Part shown: in pieces, positions 1 to 7,023 of the stretch | Numbering within the stretch: position 1 is the first letter of the stretch | How the letters are laid out: each line of letters begins with the position of its first letter | DNA from: a virus | Taxonomy: Duplodnaviria; Heunggongvirae; Uroviricota; Caudoviricetes | Length of the DNA: 10,435 nucleotides | Virus record (IMG/VR): IMGVR_UViG_2671180556_000023 | Location: 1 to 10,435 of that record | Strand: one strand, 5' to 3' | Position numbers and translations under genes: made by a program | The notes under the pieces: model-generated | What the model was told of the DNA's origin: nothing | Database searches by the model: none | The model's input: only the letters and a program-made list of their open reading frames with translations

Positions 1-2343
1 TCAGGTTGTTGCAGGGTCGTCACATTTTGGCAGCCAGTCGCCGTAGCTTTCCTCTTTCAGCGTCAGGTTGGTCTGTATCCCCTGTTTGGTATGGCGCTTC
101 TCGTAATTCAGTCCGTATTCCTTCAGCATCACCGGCAGCCCCAGCCCGAACATTTTCAGACTGAGTACATTCCGGTAGCCGTTTGCCTCCATGTAGGCCA
201 GATAGGCGTGATAGAGGTATTTACGGTAGTTACGCGGGATGATACTGGCGTTCCCCATATACATGCCGCTGGTCTGCGGCAGGGTTTCCAGATAGCCGAT
301 AAAATCAAACGTCGGGTCGGCATCCCGTTTGATGTTCAGTGCCTCGTCTGAGTTCTGCTGGGACTGAAGCAGTGACCGGGCGAGCATCGGGTCGCTGAAC
401 TTCTGCATCAGGTGACGCACGATGACCGCCAGCTCGCGGGTGATTTTGTCCTTAAGCTGCGGGTCGCGCTCCTGCGGGGCTATCTGTTCCGGGAAGTGAA
501 TAATCACCCGCCGGCGTGACACGCCGCCGCTGCGGTCGGTGAAGCGCATCGGGTTATTGTTCACGGCCAGAATCACCGCCGGGATATGCGTGGAGTACGC
601 ATCCCGGTATTTCGGGTCAACGGACACCGCATCGCCGCCGGTGATGGCCTTGAGTCCGGCACCGTCGCCGCTCCATTTTTCCTGGTCCGGCAGGCGTATC
701 AGTGAGAAGCCAGTTAACGCGGCACGTTCACGCGGGGATTCCAGCGTCTCAATGGTGGCCGACGTGGCGTTATCCTCCCCGGCCAGCAGGGTGGCTATTT
801 CGGCCATGATACTTTTGCCGCTGCCGCCGGGACCGGTCACCTCCAGAAAGAGCTGCCAGTCATAGCGGTTTGCCAGCACCATAAACAGTGCGGCCAGAAT
901 CACGTCGCGTTTTTCCGCACGGCCACCGGCGGCACGGTCAAGCCAGCGCCAGAACGCGGGAGCGTGGGTTTCCAGCGTTTCACCGTCCACCGGCGGGGTG
1001 AAATCCACATCGCACAGGGTGCGCATCCAGTGTGACGGACTGTGCGGGTGGAACGTGCCGTTCTGCGTGTCGAGCACGCCGTTACGAAAGCCAATCAGGC
1101 AGCGGGAGGGGGCTTCCTGCTGCGGAATAATCAGCTTCAGGGTGTCCACCACGGAGGCCACCTTCCCGGAGGAGAACGGCGCACGCAGTCGCTGAAACAG
1201 CCCGGCCACATCCCGGGCAAAGTCCTGTGGCGGCAGCACCTTCCAGACACCATTTTCATAGCGGGACAGAAGCTGGCCGTTGGCATCGACCGCGAGCGCC
1301 TCGCCGTAATGCTCATAGATACGCATGGCCTTTTCGCTGGTACTCATGGCGGAAAACTCCGCTTCGCTCATGGTGTCGAACGGGCTTTCAGTCGGTGGCC
1401 GAATGGCATCGTAAATGGCCTTACGGGTGGCTTCCCCGCCGTACTGCGTGAAGGCATCATTCCAGTCACCGAAGACCGGCGGCAGGGCAACAACACCTTC
1501 ACACGCATCTGCGGCTGCGGCGGCTTTTTTCTGGCCGTCACCGCTGAGGTCACGGTCTGCGGCAAGGACAATCTGACAGGCCGGATGCTTCTGCCGGGCA
1601 AGTCTGGCCAGAGAAAGGAGGTTCACGGAAGAAAGCGCCACCATCACCGTTTCACCGGTCAGGTGATGCACGGTAAGTGCGGTCGCGTATCCCTCCGCTA
1701 TCCACAGACGTTTTCCGGCCTGGTTCTGTCCTTCAAGGGTGTGACAGGTGCCCCTGACCTGTCCGCCTTTCAGGGTGCGCTTACGGCCGTCAGCACTGAT
1801 TAACTGAAGGTTAACCAGTTCGCCGCTGTCGTCATACAGTGGCACCACAAGGTCACCGGCGCGCCAGCTCACGCCACCGGCTCTGTGTGTGCCGGTCAGC
1901 ATCCGGCATTCCCGGCCGGGAAAGCCCTTGCGGGTCAGGTAGGCGTTACCGGTTCCGGGACGGGTTTTCGCCATCAGGGTTTGTGCCAGTGCGGCGGCGT
2001 TCTTCCGGGCAGCGTCTGTTTCAGCACCGGCGGCGGCCGTCACTGCCGGGTCAGCCGGGTCAGCCGGGGGCAGGCTGCCGGTCACGGCAGCCACCTTTGT
2101 GGCCGCGTCGGATGGGGAGACACCAAACACCTTTTCAACCAGTTTCAGACCGTCACCGGCACCACACTGATTGCAGTACCAGGTGCCGCGCCCCTCCCTG
2201 TCATCAAAACGGAAGCGGTCACTCCCGCCACAGACCGGACAGGGCTGATGACGGTTTTTCAGCACCTGAATCCCCAGCGCCGGGAGAATACGCGGCCAGT
2301 GGCCGAGCGCATGGCTGACGGTGGCGGTTACGTTCATTTTCAT
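1..2343 (-). CDS. P4 alpha-type primase-helicase (replication protein), 780 aa, complete
   Basis: Full ORF with ATG at 2343 and TGA at 3-1; AAGGAG Shine-Dalgarno 9 nt upstream (2353-2358 region). N-terminal zinc-ribbon motif CPVCGG...CNQCG typical of primases; Walker A TGPGGSGKS in the C-terminal helicase half. Length is close to the 777 aa I recall for P4 alpha. Confidence 0.9.
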   Translation of the reverse strand: MKMNVTATVSHALGHWPRILPALGIQVLKNRHQPCPVCGGSDRFRFDDREGRGTWYCNQCGAGDGLKLVEKVFGVSPSDAATKVAAVTGSLPPADPADPAVTAAAGAETDAARKNAAALAQTLMAKTRPGTGNAYLTRKGFPGRECRMLTGTHRAGGVSWRAGDLVVPLYDDSGELVNLQLISADGRKRTLKGGQVRGTCHTLEGQNQAGKRLWIAEGYATALTVHHLTGETVMVALSSVNLLSLARLARQKHPACQIVLAADRDLSGDGQKKAAAAADACEGVVALPPVFGDWNDAFTQYGGEATRKAIYDAIRPPTESPFDTMSEAEFSAMSTSEKAMRIYEHYGEALAVDANGQLLSRYENGVWKVLPPQDFARDVAGLFQRLRAPFSSGKVASVVDTLKLIIPQQEAPSRCLIGFRNGVLDTQNGTFHPHSPSHWMRTLCDVDFTPPVDGETLETHAPAFWRWLDRAAGGRAEKRDVILAALFMVLANRYDWQLFLEVTGPGGSGKSIMAEIATLLAGEDNATSATIETLESPRERAALTGFSLIRLPDQEKWSGDGAGLKAITGGDAVSVDPKYRDAYSTHIPAVILAVNNNPMRFTDRSGGVSRRRVIIHFPEQIAPQERDPQLKDKITRELAVIVRHLMQKFSDPMLARSLLQSQQNSDEALNIKRDADPTFDFIGYLETLPQTSGMYMGNASIIPRNYRKYLYHAYLAYMEANGYRNVLSLKMFGLGLPVMLKEYGLNYEKRHTKQGIQTNLTLKEESYGDWLPKCDDPATT

Positions 2344-2357
2344 GGTGTTGTTCTCCT

Positions 2358-2678
2358 TCAGTGCAGTACCGGCGCTTTTATGTGACGGGCACAGAGTTCA
2401 TCCATCACAACCAGCCCGAGAAAGGACAGCGACGGCGCGGCCTTCAGGGGGCCGGATTCCATTAAATCTTCCAGCAGGGCACAGGCTATCTGACGCCCTT
2501 TTTCCTCACCGTGCTGGCGCAGATAAAAGCCCTCCAGCTCAGCGGCGATGGCCGCCTCCAGTGATTCAAGGGTGAGATGCGGGTAGCGGTGCTGACGTTC
2601 GCACACGGTCAGCCAGGCACAGGCGACAGCGCGACGGTAAAGGGCAGCGCGTAAGACGGGCGGTAAGGGTGTTTTCAT
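2358..2678 (-). CDS. Hypothetical 106-aa protein of the P4 left operon (size matches P4 orf106)
   Basis: ATG at 2678 preceded by GGAGG with 7-nt spacer; ends 14 nt before the alpha start. Assignment to P4 orf106 is by size and position only. Confidence 0.6.
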
Positions 2679-2813
2679 TTGTTTTCCTCCCTGTGACAGA
2701 TGACTGCATTCCGTGCCGGTTGCATTAACTGATAAGGCATATCTGCGTCTCCTGAAGACGTGCGTATCCCTGCGCGAATACGCACATTTAATTTTTCGGG
2801 TGTAGTTTTTTAA

Positions 2814-3269
2814 TTACAGATAATTGCGGTAACTGTTATCCGGGGTGATTTCCGGGTCAGGCTCCGTGCGGGGAATTTCCCGCCATTCCCGCGCCACCGG
2901 TGCCGCCCGGCTGGCCGGAACAGTGTCCTGCGGGTAAATATCCAGATATTTCTCCCGCCATTTCTGTAATTCCGGGTCTCCGGCCATTTCTTTCAGTACC
3001 GCATGCCGGTTTACGGGGCTGCGTTTAAACAGGTCAGGACGGTCACAGGTAAATTCCCGCAGAAAACGCCCCAGCGGGATGTCTGTGGTGCGCCCGTCGG
3101 CGAGGATACGCACAAGGATACTGAATTTACGGCGGTACGGGTTCCAGACAATTTCCGGGCAGCGGTACGGCATTTCCCACGGAATACCGTCTTCCAGAAT
3201 GCCGACCACGGCCACATCGGGAAAACCGGCAGAACGGTAAATCTCACCGGGCTGGGGAAAATCAAACAT
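2814..3269 (-). CDS. Hypothetical 151-aa protein (size and position match P4 orf151)
   Basis: ATG at 3269 overlaps the stop of the upstream ORF (ATGTTTGA), indicating translational coupling. Function not inferable from sequence. Confidence 0.7.
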   Translation of the reverse strand: MFDFPQPGEIYRSAGFPDVAVVGILEDGIPWEMPYRCPEIVWNPYRRKFSILVRILADGRTTDIPLGRFLREFTCDRPDLFKRSPVNRHAVLKEMAGDPELQKWREKYLDIYPQDTVPASRAAPVAREWREIPRTEPDPEITPDNSYRNYL

Positions 3270-3549
3270 GCGTCCTGTCTCCCCGGTCTTTCTGCTGGGC
3301 GAGAAAATCGCGGCACAGGCCTTTGGCTTTCAGCTCATTCAGCACAAAATCAATATCTTCATTCAGGTAGCTGAAAATATGCGGAATGTAGAGCTGATGC
3401 AGGCCGGAGAGTTCACGGTGAATCAAATCACCCCCAACAAACTGGGATACGGCGCTGGCGCGGTTGAGCTTATGGTAAGCCTCAATGCTGAGGTGTTCAC
3501 GGGCGTCATGACGCGCTGAGACGGTCTGAGGGGCTTTTTTATTACGCAC
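3262..3549 (-). CDS. Small protein, 95 aa if started at GTG 3549; possible epsilon-like (helper derepression) gene
   Basis: GTG at 3549-3547 preceded by GGAGG with 6-nt spacer and overlapping the kil stop (GTGCGTAA). An alternative in-frame ATG at 3594 gives 110 aa. The epsilon assignment is by position in the operon only. Confidence 0.5.
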
Positions 3550-3739
3550 GGGACACCTCCACCACCGGCAGACGGGCAGCAAGGGAGAGCACATAGTCAC
3601 GGACAAGGGAACGGCGGGCGCTGCGTTCATCACCGGCGACGGTGCGAAGCATGCAGATACGGGGATGACGGTCTGCGCGACGGACAGCCGCAAACACAAA
3701 GACAAATTCAGGGTGTGAGGGGGTAAGGGTTGTAGCCAT
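3542..3739 (-). CDS. kil: Kil-like 65-aa protein (annotated in databases as Icd-like cell division inhibitor)
   Basis: ATG at 3739 with AGGAGG 9 nt upstream; 65 aa, matching the published size of P4 kil; it is the 3' terminal part of the longer eta frame, as described for P4. Confidence 0.75.
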
Positions 3740-4141
3740 GATGGCAGCCTCCTGTGAATAGCAAATAACGCTATCGCCGGAGTTTCCACGCTCGATGGCG
3801 ATAGCCCAGACGGGGGTGGAAATACCGGCTTCACAGGATACCGGCCAGCCCGGAGGCTGCCCCGCCTGAGCTACCATTGACTCTGCGGCATAATGAGCGG
3901 ACGCGGGCAGGATGCACGGAATGCCATCTGCACGACTGACCACACACCACACCATAATCTGGCGCTCTGTGGCGTTGATTGCGACACAAAAAAAGACGCA
4001 TGGCGCGTCATATGTCGCCTGTGAATTGCTCGGGTTTCCACGCCCGGCTGCCGATTTTGCGGCAGCGGAAAAACTATATCCGCAAATGCCGGAAAAAGGC
4101 AAGCCAGAAAAAGGGAGTTTTTGCAGAGCGGGCATCATCAT
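3542..4141 (-). CDS. eta: Eta-like nested ORF, 199 aa, same frame as kil
   Basis: Three consecutive ATG codons at 4141-4133 (MMM) give 199, 198 or 197 aa, matching the published description of P4 eta with three likely start codons; the first ATG overlaps the vis stop (ATGA). The ORF-track start at 4186 is a non-ATG codon and is not used. Confidence 0.5.
3770..3805 (-). other. GC-rich stem-loop in the kil leader (9-bp stem, 18-nt loop), U-rich on its 3' side on the minus strand
   Basis: GCTATCGCC (3770-3778) pairs perfectly with GGCGATAGC (3797-3805). On the minus-strand RNA it is followed by GUUAUUUGCUAUU and lies about 30 nt upstream of the kil start. Confidence 0.4.
4073..4102 (-). promoter_or_regulatory. 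Candidate constitutive sigma70 promoter (PLE-like) inside eta, reading toward kil
   Basis: On the minus strand: -35 TTGCCT (4102-4097), 18-nt spacer, -10 TATAGT (4078-4073). It lies about 395 nt downstream of the predicted PLL start, consistent with the published P4 spacing of roughly 400 nt. Confidence 0.4.
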
Positions 4142-4404
4142 GCGTCGTACCCCCGTTTGCGTCCGGCGATGCGCCCGGCCATCCATGCGGTGACTTCAGA
4201 GTGCAGCCAGGCCACATTTTTACCGCCAAGACTCACCTGCGGCGGAAATTCCCCCTTACGGATGAGTTCATAGATGGTCGAGCGTGACAGGCCGCACAGG
4301 TGCATCACTTCCGGCAGGCGTAAAAAACGCTCCTGCGTGATGTCCGGCAGCGGCATCAGTGGTGTCACAGGGGCGGGAGACGGGGAAGAAAAAACAGCTT
4401 GCAT
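4138..4404 (-). CDS. vis: Vis/AlpA-family small helix-turn-helix regulator, 88 aa
   Basis: ATG at 4404 with GAGG 7 nt upstream; sequence ...[22 protein letters not shown]... is typical of AlpA/Vis-type HTH proteins; 88 aa matches P4 orf88. Confidence 0.85.
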
Positions 4405-4471
4405 CGGGCTACCTCGTTAATGTCCATACAGCACCGGATAAGTCCGTCCGGCTTCGGGTAGCGCTTTATTT

Positions 4472-4524
4472 TGTGAATATTTTCAGCAGACGCAACAGGG
4501 GGGATTTGTTCCGGCAGCCTTACA
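4472..4524 (-). promoter_or_regulatory. Candidate delta/Ogr-dependent late promoter for vis (PLL-like)
   Basis: Perfect TGT-N12-ACA dyad at 4507-4524; a second imperfect dyad at 4472-4489 (TGT-N12-CAG) about 37 bp closer to vis. The two centres fit the -55 and -18 positions described for P4 late promoters, predicting a start near 4460. Confidence 0.35.
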
Positions 4525-4550
4525 ATGGTTGTGTGTTTTTTGTTCATTTC

Positions 4551-4579
4551 CACTTAAAGTCATTTAAAGCCACTTAAAG
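4551..4579. repeat. Three helically phased direct repeats of C(A/T)(C/T)TTAAAG at 10-bp spacing
   Basis: cacttaaag (4551-4559), catttaaag (4561-4569), cacttaaag (4571-4579). Function unknown; lies between the PLL dyad and the iteron cluster. Confidence 0.5.
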
Positions 4580-4683
4580 CAATTTGTAATTTTTATAGTG
4601 AAATACAAATCGTTTCTTCTTATTCATTCCCGGCGAATTAATAAAAACAAACAGTAGTAAACAGCACAAAAAGTCCATGAGCG

Positions 4684-4787
4684 GGTGAACAGTGGTGAAC
4701 AGACGGTGAACAGTCATTACTGCGATTGTTCATCCTTTAACTTACTGTATTACTTATCTTTTTTATTAAGGTGAACAGAGGTGAACA
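4684..4787. repeat. crr-like cis replication region: cluster of TGTTCACC-type iterons
   Basis: GGTGAACA at 4684-4691, 4694-4701, 4705-4712, 4770-4777 and 4780-4787 (direct, 10-11 bp spacing), plus one near-inverted copy TGTTCATC at 4727-4734. The octamer TGTTCACC is the alpha-protein binding repeat described for P4 ori and crr. Confidence 0.7.
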
Positions 4788-4866
4788 GTAAAATATAAAA
4801 AAACAAACAGTAAGCCGGTTTTTCCTGCGACCTTTTCCTGGCTTGCCGGTGTGAGGATGAGTCTCC

Positions 4867-4922
4867 TGTGTCAGGGCTGGCACATCTGCAATGCGTCGTG
4901 TTGCTGTCCGGTGTACGTCACA
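4867..4922 (+). promoter_or_regulatory. Candidate delta/Ogr-dependent late promoter for sid (Psid-like) with two dyads
   Basis: TGT-N12-ACA at 4867-4884 and again at 4905-4922, centres 38 bp apart. These fit the -55 and -18 sites reported for P4 Psid and predict a start near 4931, 26 nt before the sid ATG. Confidence 0.45.
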
Positions 4923-4956
4923 ATTTTCTTAACCTGAAGTGACGAGGAGCCGGAAA

Positions 4957-5691
4957 ATGTCTGACCACACTATCCCTGAATATCTGCAACCCGCACTGGC
5001 ACAACTGGAAAAGGCCAGAGCCGCCCATCTTGAGAACGCCCGCCTGATGGATGAGACCGTCACGGCCATTGAACGGGCAGAGCAGGAAAAAAATGCGCTG
5101 GCGCAGGCCGACGGAAACGACGCTGACGACTGGCGCACGGCCTTTCGTGCAGCCGGTGGTGTCCTGAGCGACGAGCTGAAACAGCGCCACATTGAGCGCG
5201 TGGCACGCCGGGAGCTGGTACAGGAATATGACAATCTGGCCGTGGTGCTGAATTTTGAACGCGAACGCCTGAAAGGGGCGTGTGACAGCACGGCCACCGC
5301 CTACCGGAAGGCACATCATCACCTGCTGAGTCTGTATGCAGAGCATGAGCTGGAACACGCCCTGAATGAAACCTGTGAGGCGCTTGTCCGGGCAATGCAT
5401 CTGAGCATCCTGGTACAGGAAAATCCGCTCGCCAACACCACCGGCCATCAGGGCTACGTCGCACCGGAAAAGGCTGTCATGCAGCAGGTGAAATCATCGC
5501 TGGAACAGAAAATAAAACAGATGCAAATCAGCCTCACCGGCGAGCCGGTTCTCCGGCTGACCGGACTGTCAGCGGCAACACTCCCGCACATGGATTATGA
5601 GGTGGCAGGCACACCGGCACAGCGCAAGGTGTGGCAGGACAAAATAGACCAGCAGGGAGCAGAGCTTAAGGCCAGAGGACTGCTGTCATGA
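4957..5691 (+). CDS. sid: Sid-like capsid size-determination (external scaffold) protein, 244 aa
   Basis: ATG at 4957 with GAGGAG 8 nt upstream; the upstream GTG at 4939 lacks a ribosome-binding site. 244 aa matches P4 Sid; stop overlaps the delta start (ATGA). Confidence 0.85.
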   Translation: MSDHTIPEYLQPALAQLEKARAAHLENARLMDETVTAIERAEQEKNALAQADGNDADDWRTAFRAAGGVLSDELKQRHIERVARRELVQEYDNLAVVLNFERERLKGACDSTATAYRKAHHHLLSLYAEHELEHALNETCEALVRAMHLSILVQENPLANTTGHQGYVAPEKAVMQQVKSSLEQKIKQMQISLTGEPVLRLTGLSAATLPHMDYEVAGTPAQRKVWQDKIDQQGAELKARGLLS

Positions 5692-6188
5692 TTTACTGCC
5701 CGTCGTGTGGACATGTTGCTCATACCCGTCGCGCACATTTCATGGACGATGGCACCAAGATAATGATTGCACAGTGCCGGAATATTTATTGCTCTGCGAC
5801 ATTTGAAGCGAGTGAAAGCTTTTTCTCTGACTGTAAAGATTCAGGAATGGAATACATTTCAGGCAAACAGAGATACCGCGATTCACTGACTTCTGCCTCC
5901 GGCAGTATGAAACGCCCGAAAAGAATGCTTGTTACCGGATATTGTTGTCGGAGATGTAAAGGCCTTGCACTGTCAAGAACATCGCGGCGTCTGTCTCAGG
6001 AAGTCACTGAACGTTTTTATGTGTGCACGGATCCGGGCTGTGGTCTGGTGTTTAAAACGCTTCAGACCATCAACCGCTTCATTGTCCGCCCGGTCACGCC
6101 GGACGAACTGGCAGAAAGCCTGCATGAAAAACAGGAACTGCCGCCAGTACGGTTAAAAACACAATCATATTCGCTGCGTCTGGAATGA
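5688..6188 (+). CDS. delta: Delta-like late transcription activator (tandem Ogr-type zinc finger), 166 aa
   Basis: Two Ogr-like zinc-finger units (CPSCGH...C..IYC and CCRRC...C..PGC); 166 aa matches P4 delta; translationally coupled to sid. Confidence 0.9.
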   Translation: MIYCPSCGHVAHTRRAHFMDDGTKIMIAQCRNIYCSATFEASESFFSDCKDSGMEYISGKQRYRDSLTSASGSMKRPKRMLVTGYCCRRCKGLALSRTSRRLSQEVTERFYVCTDPGCGLVFKTLQTINRFIVRPVTPDELAESLHEKQELPPVRLKTQSYSLRLE

Positions 6189-6261
6189 GGGCTGCCGGTT
6201 AACCCCGGCCGTCGCCGCACACCGTATTTTTATTCTTCAGCATGATGAGAAAGAGATAACG

Positions 6262-6834
6262 ATGGAAAGCACAGCCTTACAGCAGGCCTTTGACACCTGT
6301 CAGAATAACAAAGCAGCATGGCTGCAACGCAAAAATGAGCTGGCTGCGGCCGAACAGGAATATCTGCGGCTTCTGTCAGGAGAAGGCAGAAACGTCAGTC
6401 GCCTGGACGAATTACGCAATATTATCGAAGTCAGAAAATGGCAGGTGAATCAGGCCGCCGGTCGTTATATTCGTTCGCATGAAGCCGTTCAGCATATCAG
6501 CATCCGCGACCGGCTGAATGATTTTATGCAGCAGCACGGCACAGCACTGGCGGCGGCACTGGCACCGGAGCTGATGGGCTACAGTGAGCTGACGGCCATT
6601 GCCCGAAACTGTGCCATACAGCGTGCCACAGATGCCCTGCGTGAAGCCCTTTTGTCCTGGCTTGCGAAGGGGGAAAAAATTAATTATTCCGCACAGGATA
6701 GCGACATTTTAACGGCCATCGGATTCAGGCCTGACGCGGCTTCGGTGGATGACAGCCGTGAAAAATTCACCCCTGCGCAGAACATGATTTTTTCGCGCAA
6801 AAGTGCGCAACTGGCATCACATCAGTCTGTGTAA
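6262..6834 (+). CDS. psu: Psu-like polarity suppression / capsid decoration protein, 190 aa
   Basis: ATG at 6262, TAA at 6832-6834; 190 aa matches P4 Psu and the N-terminus MESTALQQAFDTCQNNKAAWLQRKNELAAAEQEYL is as I recall for Psu. Confidence 0.85.
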   Translation: MESTALQQAFDTCQNNKAAWLQRKNELAAAEQEYLRLLSGEGRNVSRLDELRNIIEVRKWQVNQAAGRYIRSHEAVQHISIRDRLNDFMQQHGTALAAALAPELMGYSELTAIARNCAIQRATDALREALLSWLAKGEKINYSAQDSDILTAIGFRPDAASVDDSREKFTPAQNMIFSRKSAQLASHQSV

Positions 6835-6867
6835 AACTCCCCGAAAATCCGCCCGTTTTTACTGAAA

Positions 6868-6898
6868 AAAGCCATGCATCGATAAGGTGCATGGCTTT
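6868..6898. terminator. Stem-loop downstream of psu (11-bp stem, 9-nt loop), weak terminator candidate
   Basis: aaAGCCATGCA (6868-6878) pairs with TGCATGGCTtt (6888-6898). The U-tract is weak on both strands, so terminator function is uncertain. Confidence 0.3.
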
Positions 6899-6979
6899 GC
6901 ATGCGTTTTCCTGACTCATTTTCTGCAGATCAGGCCACGCCCGGCACGGCCTGAGCGTGACTGTGCAACTGCATTAAAA

Positions 6980-6999
6980 CCGCCCTGCAAAGCGGGCGG
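6980..6999 (-). terminator. GC-rich hairpin followed by UUUU on the minus strand, just past cos; candidate terminator for the cargo operon
   Basis: CCGCCC (6980-6985) pairs with GGGCGG (6994-6999), 8-nt loop; on the minus strand the hairpin is followed by TTTTAATGC. Confidence 0.35.
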
Positions 7000-7017
7000 G
7001 CGAGGCGGGGAAAGCAC
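6999..7017. other. cos site: 19-nt P2/P4-type cohesive end
   Basis: GGCGAGGCGGGGAAAGCAC at 6999-7017 matches the 19-nt cohesive end sequence I recall for P2 and P4; it sits about 165 bp after psu, as in P4. Confidence 0.75.
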
Positions 7018-7023
7018 TGCGCG

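Follow-up and report, generated by a model that had tools for sequence, protein, structure and literature searches.

The best described relative of the locus treated here is the immunity system of the satellite phage P4, in which an antisense RNA, CI, causes premature termination of transcription (PMC4825925). CI is released from the leader by processing and binds by base pairing at two target sites, seqA upstream and seqC downstream of CI (PMC4825925); it is among the suggested substrates of RNase P (PMC5499578). In terms of RNA families, the C4 antisense RNA corresponds to P4 CI RNA and IsrK corresponds to seqA (PMC3632133). The present analysis concerns a stretch of 10,435 nucleotides (nt) from a virus of the Caudoviricetes (IMG/VR record IMGVR_UViG_2671180556_000023, positions 1 to 10,435; this whole stretch is called the window below), in which the minus-strand leader of the short gene kil very probably forms the immunity module of a P4-type satellite prophage. 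In P4, the release of CI from the leader depends on RNase P and PNPase, and the mature RNA is stable and about 79 nt long.

The leader upstream of kil

Window positions 3400-4450 align with positions 8026-9076 of phage P4 (NC_001609) at 98.1% identity over 1051 nt and in the same orientation, and P4 4636-11624 aligns with window 1-6998 at 98.2%. Judged by this similarity, the window is a P4-like satellite prophage. A first-pass annotation, made from the letters of the window, had placed a P4-type cI-like RNA and its targets in this leader and had proposed alignment with the P4 cI region and folding of the minus strand as checks. Both checks support it. In the alignment, the ribosome-binding site (RBS) of kil and one of the CI segments that pair with targets (box 2 of the three boxes described below) are identical to those of P4, and box 3 is coherently changed. 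The sequence contains nothing that contradicts the reading of the region as an immunity module.

The whole window was searched with Rfam at the gathering thresholds, which gave three matches, all on the minus strand and in the expected order. C4 antisense RNA (RF01695, clan CL00128) was found at 3881-3794 with 76.6 bits (threshold 45), covering the model from end to end (1-87 of 87). About 150 nt upstream of CI, c4-a1b1 (RF03163) was found at 4079-4027 with 50.2 bits (threshold 46.7), and isrK (RF01394) at 4066-3989 with 74.9 bits (threshold 50). The margin of c4-a1b1 is narrow in the window, and nine of 14 diverse relatives also exceed its threshold; C4 and isrK were matched in all 14.

The CI RNA can be placed at 3875-3796 from the C4 match, its fold and compensatory changes, with predicted ends. 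It is a C4-family cloverleaf, in which an outer stem (3875-3860 with 3815-3800) is accompanied by hairpin 1 (3859-3846) and hairpin 2 (3845-3824). The loop of hairpin 2 carries box 2, UCCUGUGAA (3838-3830), and the junction strand carries box 3, UUUCCAC (3822-3816). Box 1, GGCAGCC (3861-3855), takes in the last two pairs of the outer stem and the 5' arm of hairpin 1. The minus-strand folding gave the cloverleaf for the 88-nt CI stretch, with a minimum free energy (MFE) of -49.3 kcal/mol and z = -5.0 against dinucleotide shuffles. Directly after the acceptor-like stem follows a 3' tail, GCCA (3799-3796), of which the CC is kept in relatives and which resembles the tRNA 3' RCCA recognised by bacterial RNase P.

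The RNA gene lies within the longer eta open reading frame (ORF) and stops about 57 nt before the kil AUG. The earlier statement that cI overlaps kil therefore has to be given up for the RNA; it is the old 137-codon 'cI protein' that overlaps kil. As in P4, the leader holds a small structured RNA gene, which comes after the promoter and ahead of the first gene to be translated. Because the two upstream segments picked out in the first-pass annotation (3831-3838 and 3855-3861) both lie inside the CI RNA, they represent seqB, and the CI-internal segments of 3861-3816 are assigned to seqB on this sequence evidence.

The complementarity that had drawn attention to the region is real and somewhat longer than was first described. 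On the plus strand, 3743-3757 reads GGCAGCCTCCTGTGA. The reverse complement of 3831-3838 is TCCTGTGA, identical to 3750-3757, and that of 3855-3861 is GGCAGCC, identical to 3743-3749. At full extent the matches span 10 nt (3852-3861 with 3743-3752) and 9 nt (3830-3838 with 3750-3758). From base composition, the 10-mer target is expected 0.0003 times and the 9-mer target 0.0014 times in a 350-nt leader, and the minus strand of the whole 10.4-kb window has one copy of each. The complementarity at the kil RBS is far above chance.

Read on the minus strand, this stretch is the core of seqC, UUCACAGGAGGCUGCC (3758-3743). The target of box 2 (3758-3750) overlaps the Shine-Dalgarno sequence GGAGG (3752-3748), and the complement of box 1 (3749-3743) lies at the kil spacer. 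The kil AUG (3739-3737) stands 8 nt past GGAGG and opens a frame of 65 residues. The hairpin directly 3' of CI (3770-3805), which had been noticed as a perfect 9-bp stem, indeed has exactly complementary arms (3770-3778 and 3797-3805) around an 18-nt loop, and this loop carries a further box, GUGGAAA (3789-3783). On the strength of the sequence match, seqC is assigned to 3789-3743, as the box in the hairpin loop together with the box at the kil RBS. As in P4, seqC thus overlaps the translation initiation region of kil, whose 65 codons lie within the eta ORF.

The second target set lies beyond the interval that the first-pass annotation had considered. From homology, seqA is assigned to 4066-4018, within an IsrK-like, a1b1-like leader element (4066-3989). 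It comprises hairpin A1 (4066-4060 with 4053-4047), hairpin A2 (4046-4043 with 4034-4031), whose loop shows GUGGAAA (4041-4035), and the single-stranded UUCACAGG (4025-4018). The homology to IsrK is structural only, and for this reason the element is not filed as a functional IsrK. Between seqA and cI, where t1 of P4 belongs, a terminator scan predicted an intrinsic terminator (4009-3995, with U7 at 3994-3988) as the counterpart of t1; its stem is 100% paired in relatives. Upstream of seqA stands a sigma-70 promoter-like site (4102-4073, minus strand) with a -35 hexamer TTGCCT (4102-4097) and a -10 hexamer TATAGT (4078-4073). It was the one site found by a consensus scan in which 0.4 were expected. 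The -10 hexamer, as TATAGT or TACAGT, hardly varies among relatives (columns 8-13 of alignment A2, see below), and by homology to P4 the site is a putative PLE promoter.

Co-variation between CI and its targets

The evidence that boxes 2 and 3 recognise these sites comes from natural variation. With the alpha protein as bait, 80 P4-like loci were collected from contigs of one genome per species, with alpha 57-99% identical and hosts ranging from Escherichia relatives to Serratia, Pectobacterium, Pantoea and Rahnella. Nhmmer found a complete leader upstream of alpha in nearly all 80 loci. Alignment A2 holds 74 distinct leaders from Enterobacterales, and each named pairing was counted per cell of this alignment.

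The intramolecular helices set the standard: the two seqA hairpins, the terminator stem, the CI outer stem and CI hairpins 1 and 2 are 99.8-100% paired, with 11 pairs changed on both sides and compensatory changes in all three CI helices. The pairings between CI and its targets come close to this. Box 3 (3822-3816) is paired with GUGGAAA in the post-CI hairpin loop (3789-3783) in 100% of cells and with GUGGAAA in the seqA hairpin-2 loop (4041-4035) in 99.8%, and six of the seven pairs are compensated in each case. Box 2 (3838-3830) is paired with the kil RBS box (3758-3750) in 95.0% of cells, with seven of nine pairs compensated; four low rows here reflect a one-column alignment shift. With UUCACAGG of seqA (4025-4018), box 2 (3837-3830) is paired in 99.0%, with six of eight compensated. 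The stem of the post-CI hairpin (3805-3797 with 3778-3770) is paired in 99.1%, with three of nine compensated. Box 3 and its perfect co-variation with the hairpin loop had been absent from the first-pass annotation.

Two whole structures were also tested, both of which take in box 1 and one of which takes in the hairpin stem as well. Pairing in them reaches 94.9% and 96.9% and falls to 31-52% once the partner strand is slid by one to three columns. Their co-variation was scored at 0.447 and 0.591, where shuffles gave 0.179 and 0.195, and none of 500 column shuffles reached the observed pairing or score. Since the sequences are related, the shuffles overstate significance, and neither E-values nor shuffle counts can be read as probabilities; the argument rests on the slid controls and on the number of independent allele combinations. 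Read as minus-strand RNA, the pairings contain 38 G-U and 12 A-C pairs. For boxes 2 and 3, seqB in CI therefore has one target upstream (seqA) and one downstream (seqC), as in P4. The order of the elements, their folds, their complementarity and co-variation, and the recognition of two boxes at two sites are direct observations, and the natural compensatory changes are clean evidence for which nucleotides of CI contact the targets.

Box 1 behaves differently. Its pairing with GGCUGCC in the kil spacer (3749-3743) amounts to 84.2% of cells, and two of the seven pairs are changed on both sides (8 cells). At each of the four central positions 14-22 sequences are unpaired, with almost no compensation. 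The same bases inside CI are 100% paired, with four of five pairs compensated. These three properties (poor pairing with the target, lack of compensation and internal pairing in CI) rule out box 1 as a contact conserved across the family. Of the two complementary segments first pointed out, the half at 3831-3838 thus co-varies with both the kil RBS and seqA, and the half at 3855-3861 does not; half of the complementarity visible in a single sequence is not conserved.

It may still be asked whether the full 15-nt complementarity, including GGCAGCC (3861-3855), is the functional duplex of seqB and seqC. Hairpin 1 of CI would then open, and CI would cover the whole Shine-Dalgarno sequence and the spacer. 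The 10-nt match is perfect in both the window and P4, the 7-nt core is fully paired in 37 of the 74 loci, and strand exchange that follows an initial loop contact is a common mechanism of antisense RNAs. However, 15 loci have another hairpin-1 arm (GGGCUUC, GGCUGAC or GGCCGAC) and yet show the same few kil spacer variants as are found beside the common arm. Together with the almost uncompensated central pairs and the well-kept pairing of these bases inside CI, this makes the longer duplex unlikely. The box 1 complementarity is not a defining contact; at best, it would extend the pairing optionally within the P4 subgroup.

Proposed mechanism and alternative readings

The module would work as follows, with processing, action in trans and termination carried over from the P4 literature or from analogy. 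Transcription of the minus strand would start at a constitutive promoter near 4070 and pass through the seqA leader with its terminator, the CI RNA, the hairpin and the kil RBS. The CI RNA, about 80 nt long and folded like a tRNA into a cloverleaf with GCCA at its 3' end, would be cut from this leader, as is done in P4 by the two enzymes named above. The loop of hairpin 2, UCCUGUGAA, and the junction UUUCCAC would then recognise the same two boxes, which the leader displays twice: in seqA as GUGGAAA in a hairpin loop followed by UUCACAGG, and in seqC as GUGGAAA in the loop of the 9-bp hairpin together with UUCACAGGA, which overlaps the kil Shine-Dalgarno sequence.

Pairing of CI with seqA would favour termination at the upstream terminator, by which CI would limit its own synthesis; in P4, CI on seqA reportedly boosts termination at t1 and thereby autoregulates CI. 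Pairing with seqC would halt transcription before or inside kil, partly by a block of kil translation that allows Rho termination. Translation of kil is said to guard against Rho-dependent termination at a site, timm, inside kil. Since transcription would stop here, neither the lysogen nor superinfecting copies that share its immunity type would express the downstream replication genes epsilon and alpha. A non-canonical CI-dependent terminator, t4, has reportedly been placed between cI and timm in P4, and the post-CI hairpin may be its counterpart, as a candidate by position alone.

Positions 3805-3800 belong both to the 5' arm of the post-CI hairpin (3805-3797) and to the 3' strand of the CI outer stem, and both helices co-vary. 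The two are thus mutually exclusive. Together with leader folds of nearly equal energy, this suggests a processing or folding switch.

Two energy calculations bear on this mechanism. RNAcofold of mature CI with seqC or seqA gave a gain of -5.2 or -4.0 kcal/mol, which is within the range of shuffled targets; the result is uninformative, as loop-loop contacts cannot be represented by the method. In the unprocessed 152-nt leader with CI and kil, the favoured fold joins seqB to seqC in cis (-75.6 kcal/mol); with the cloverleaf enforced, the energy is -73.3 kcal/mol. With a competitive cis fold, action in trans is not shown by sequence alone.

This leads to the alternative that the segments act mainly in cis, by pairing inside a single leader molecule, which would adopt an attenuator-like alternative fold and so conceal the kil RBS. 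The MFE fold just mentioned agrees with it, as box 2, an arm of hairpin 2 and box 3 are all paired with seqC there, and the shared positions 3805-3800 would amount to a built-in structural choice between the post-CI hairpin and the CI outer stem. However, the CI cloverleaf is kept with compensatory changes, and its tRNA-like GCCA tail makes sense only for a separate, processed RNA. In addition, a second target set with the same boxes, seqA, lies 200 nt upstream. A mainly cis-acting leader is accordingly improbable, and cis pairing may well occur alongside action in trans.

That the inverted repeats are features of the DNA (protein operators or leftovers of recombination), or chance complementarity in a GC-rich leader, can practically be dismissed: short GC-rich complements are common, an unrelated site of similar energy exists and box 1 acts like a non-selected match, but exact matches of nine and ten nt are hardly expected in such a leader, boxes 2 and 3 are altered on both sides at six to seven positions each and still 95-100% paired, the covariance-model matches are strand-specific and G-U is tolerated above A-C, so that the co-variation excludes both versions for boxes 2 and 3. 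The unrelated site came from a sliding duplex scan of the window with the module of boxes 2 and 3, in which seqC (-29.5 kcal/mol) and seqA (-28.4 kcal/mol) ranked near the top beside a site at 2909-2886 (-29.7 kcal/mol). This site, a GC-rich, imperfect complement on the minus strand inside ORF151, was rejected as a CI target; it is probably due to chance and uses the closed stem of hairpin 2. The immunity module acting through boxes 2 and 3 remains the preferred reading.

Gene context, immunity types and related systems

The genes around the module are those of P4. The alpha primase lies at 2343-1 on the minus strand, and epsilon (Pfam Derepression, 170 bits), the AlpA/Vis-like ORF88, delta, psu and an integrase flank the region. 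The eta ORF (4186-3542, minus strand; Pfam Phage_ASH, 93.9 bits) contains in its 3' part the kil ORF (3739-3542, minus strand; 65 codons and stop), which was taken from the ORF list and its translation. On identical Escherichia coli DNA, RefSeq labels window 3542-4186 as 'host cell division inhibitor Icd-like protein', and for this stretch the label in old P4 records is 'cI gene product / transcriptional repressor', a protein of 137 aa. The annotation of the matches to 3542-4186 lists protein labels only and no RNA gene. A region that databases call 'Icd-like protein' or 'cI protein' is, on the reading preferred here, an RNA-based repressor circuit, for which coordinates of the CI RNA, seqA, seqB, seqC and the kil RBS are now given.

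Many E. coli chromosomes, among them those of IHE3034 and O157:H7 strains, carry the 361-nt leader at 100% identity, and some relative of it occurs in 1039 of 5426 complete E. coli genomes. The element is thus a common, widespread P4-like satellite prophage of E. coli. Matches to the module extend to other kinds of mobile elements. The linear-plasmid prophages phiKO2 and PY54 and other N15-like phages of Klebsiella and Yersinia match the part with CI and seqC (about 3770-4090) at 75-79% on the DNA level, and the P1-like phages RCS47 and D6 match the adjoining stretch (about 3700-3885). One of the collected loci has a second isrK-like element (L043:7337-7414) about 7 kb from the first. Taken together, these matches point to a module that is common to unrelated mobile elements.

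Between the cos/psu end, where homology to P4 stops (6998), and the integrase (9350-10435), the window carries a type II-A retron on the minus strand (7024-9195). It consists of a 486-aa reverse transcriptase (PADLOC RT_II-A, 665 bits; Pfam RVT_1) and a 205-aa NDT_II-A-like partner; Rfam gave no match at the gathering threshold for an msr/msd RNA beside the reverse transcriptase. The position agrees with a known hotspot of defence cargo in P4-like satellites and is reminiscent of the retronphage phiR73.

Over 701 nt, the window differs from P4 at 15 bases, and six of the 15 belong to one dinucleotide swap repeated at three sites. GGAA of the window stands for GAGA of P4 at 4038-4037, 3820-3819 and 3786-3785, which are the three cognate copies of box 3. 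The swap preserves every pair (U-A becomes C-G and C-G becomes U-A) and thus represents a threefold compensatory change of natural origin. That the old P4 record might carry a sequencing error (GAGA in place of GGAA) was ruled out, for GAGA stands coherently at each of the three sites in 13 of the 74 leaders, 12 of which are independent natural loci.

The 74 leaders contain six alleles of box 3 and 16 of box 2, in 33 combinations. CI fully matches its own seqA in 69 of 74 loci, and a foreign seqA in 232 of 5402 combinations. The window combines box 2 of P4 with a box 3 that is not that of P4, and its CI on the targets of P4 would meet one mismatch and one G-U pair in the 7-bp box 3 helix. It is tentatively suggested, with the chances slightly against it, that immunity specificity in P4-like elements is a modular two-box code, in which boxes 2 and 3 are each mirrored in seqA and seqC and are reassorted, and that the window would be a natural hybrid, which could be partly or fully heteroimmune to P4. 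In one locus from Mangrovibacter yixingensis (L055:22-337), the seqA boxes are of another immunity type than its own CI and seqC, with 12 of 15 positions paired; this leader appears to have recombined, with the junction falling between seqA and cI.

The mechanism and the family described here are already known, and since the biology has been known since the 1990s, no new question is opened by it. The principle of differing immunity types is likewise known, from P1/P7 and from P4/phiR73. An open-access survey of P4-like satellites does not discuss the immunity RNA, and in view of this silence a systematic description of immunity types may be lacking. The breadth and modularity of these types in P4-like satellites are the only mildly new point, and a catalogue of them could predict mutual exclusion among such satellites.

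Among known systems, P4 immunity is the closest. The DNA is orthologous at 98% identity, the order is the same (promoter, seqA, terminator, cI, hairpin, kil RBS, kil/eta, epsilon), and box 2 and the kil RBS are shared without change. In contrast, box 3 and its targets read UUCUCAC/GUGAGAA in P4 and UUUCCAC/GUGGAAA in the window, coherently at the three sites, and the cargo beside cos consists of P4's own genes there and of the type II-A retron here. A further difference concerns the arm of seqA hairpin 1, which reads CGCCUGCC in the P4 record (NC_001609, about 8693-8692) and CCGCUGCC in the window (4067-4066). The G that opens this hairpin is present in nearly all of the 72 other leaders, as in the window, and the base pair is lost in the P4 version, which may be an old sequencing error or a mutation of the laboratory strain.

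The C4 RNA of P1 and P7 (RF01695; its targets are a1/b1, RF03163, and a2/b2 before icd-ant) belongs to the same family by covariance model. It shares the logic of a processed, RNase P-dependent cloverleaf with two recognition elements, where processing in the window would be expected by analogy, and it has two target sets, the second of which lies over the RBS of a small cell-division-inhibitor or killer gene (Icd-like). Unlike the satellite described here, P1 and P7 are plasmid prophages, and the downstream gene is an antirepressor in place of the replication functions of P4. The outcome in P4 is described as premature termination, both intrinsic and Rho-dependent, in contrast to C4 of P1/P7.

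The IsrK small RNA of the Salmonella prophage Gifsy-1 (RF01394) is comparable to one part of the module, as seqA with its terminator (4066-3989) fits the IsrK model well (vide supra). IsrK is regarded as a structural homologue of P4 seqA (PMC4825925). However, IsrK is an Hfq-binding small RNA and mRNA that governs an anti-terminator pathway in a lambdoid prophage, whereas the element in the window would be a target and attenuator of the CI circuit.

Finally, the retronphage phiR73 resembles the window in being a P4-like satellite with a retron whose immunity recognition sequences differ from those of P4; it is reportedly heteroimmune to P4. The Ec73 reverse transcriptase of phiR73 has 316 aa, and that of the window, which fits the RT_II-A model, has 486 aa.

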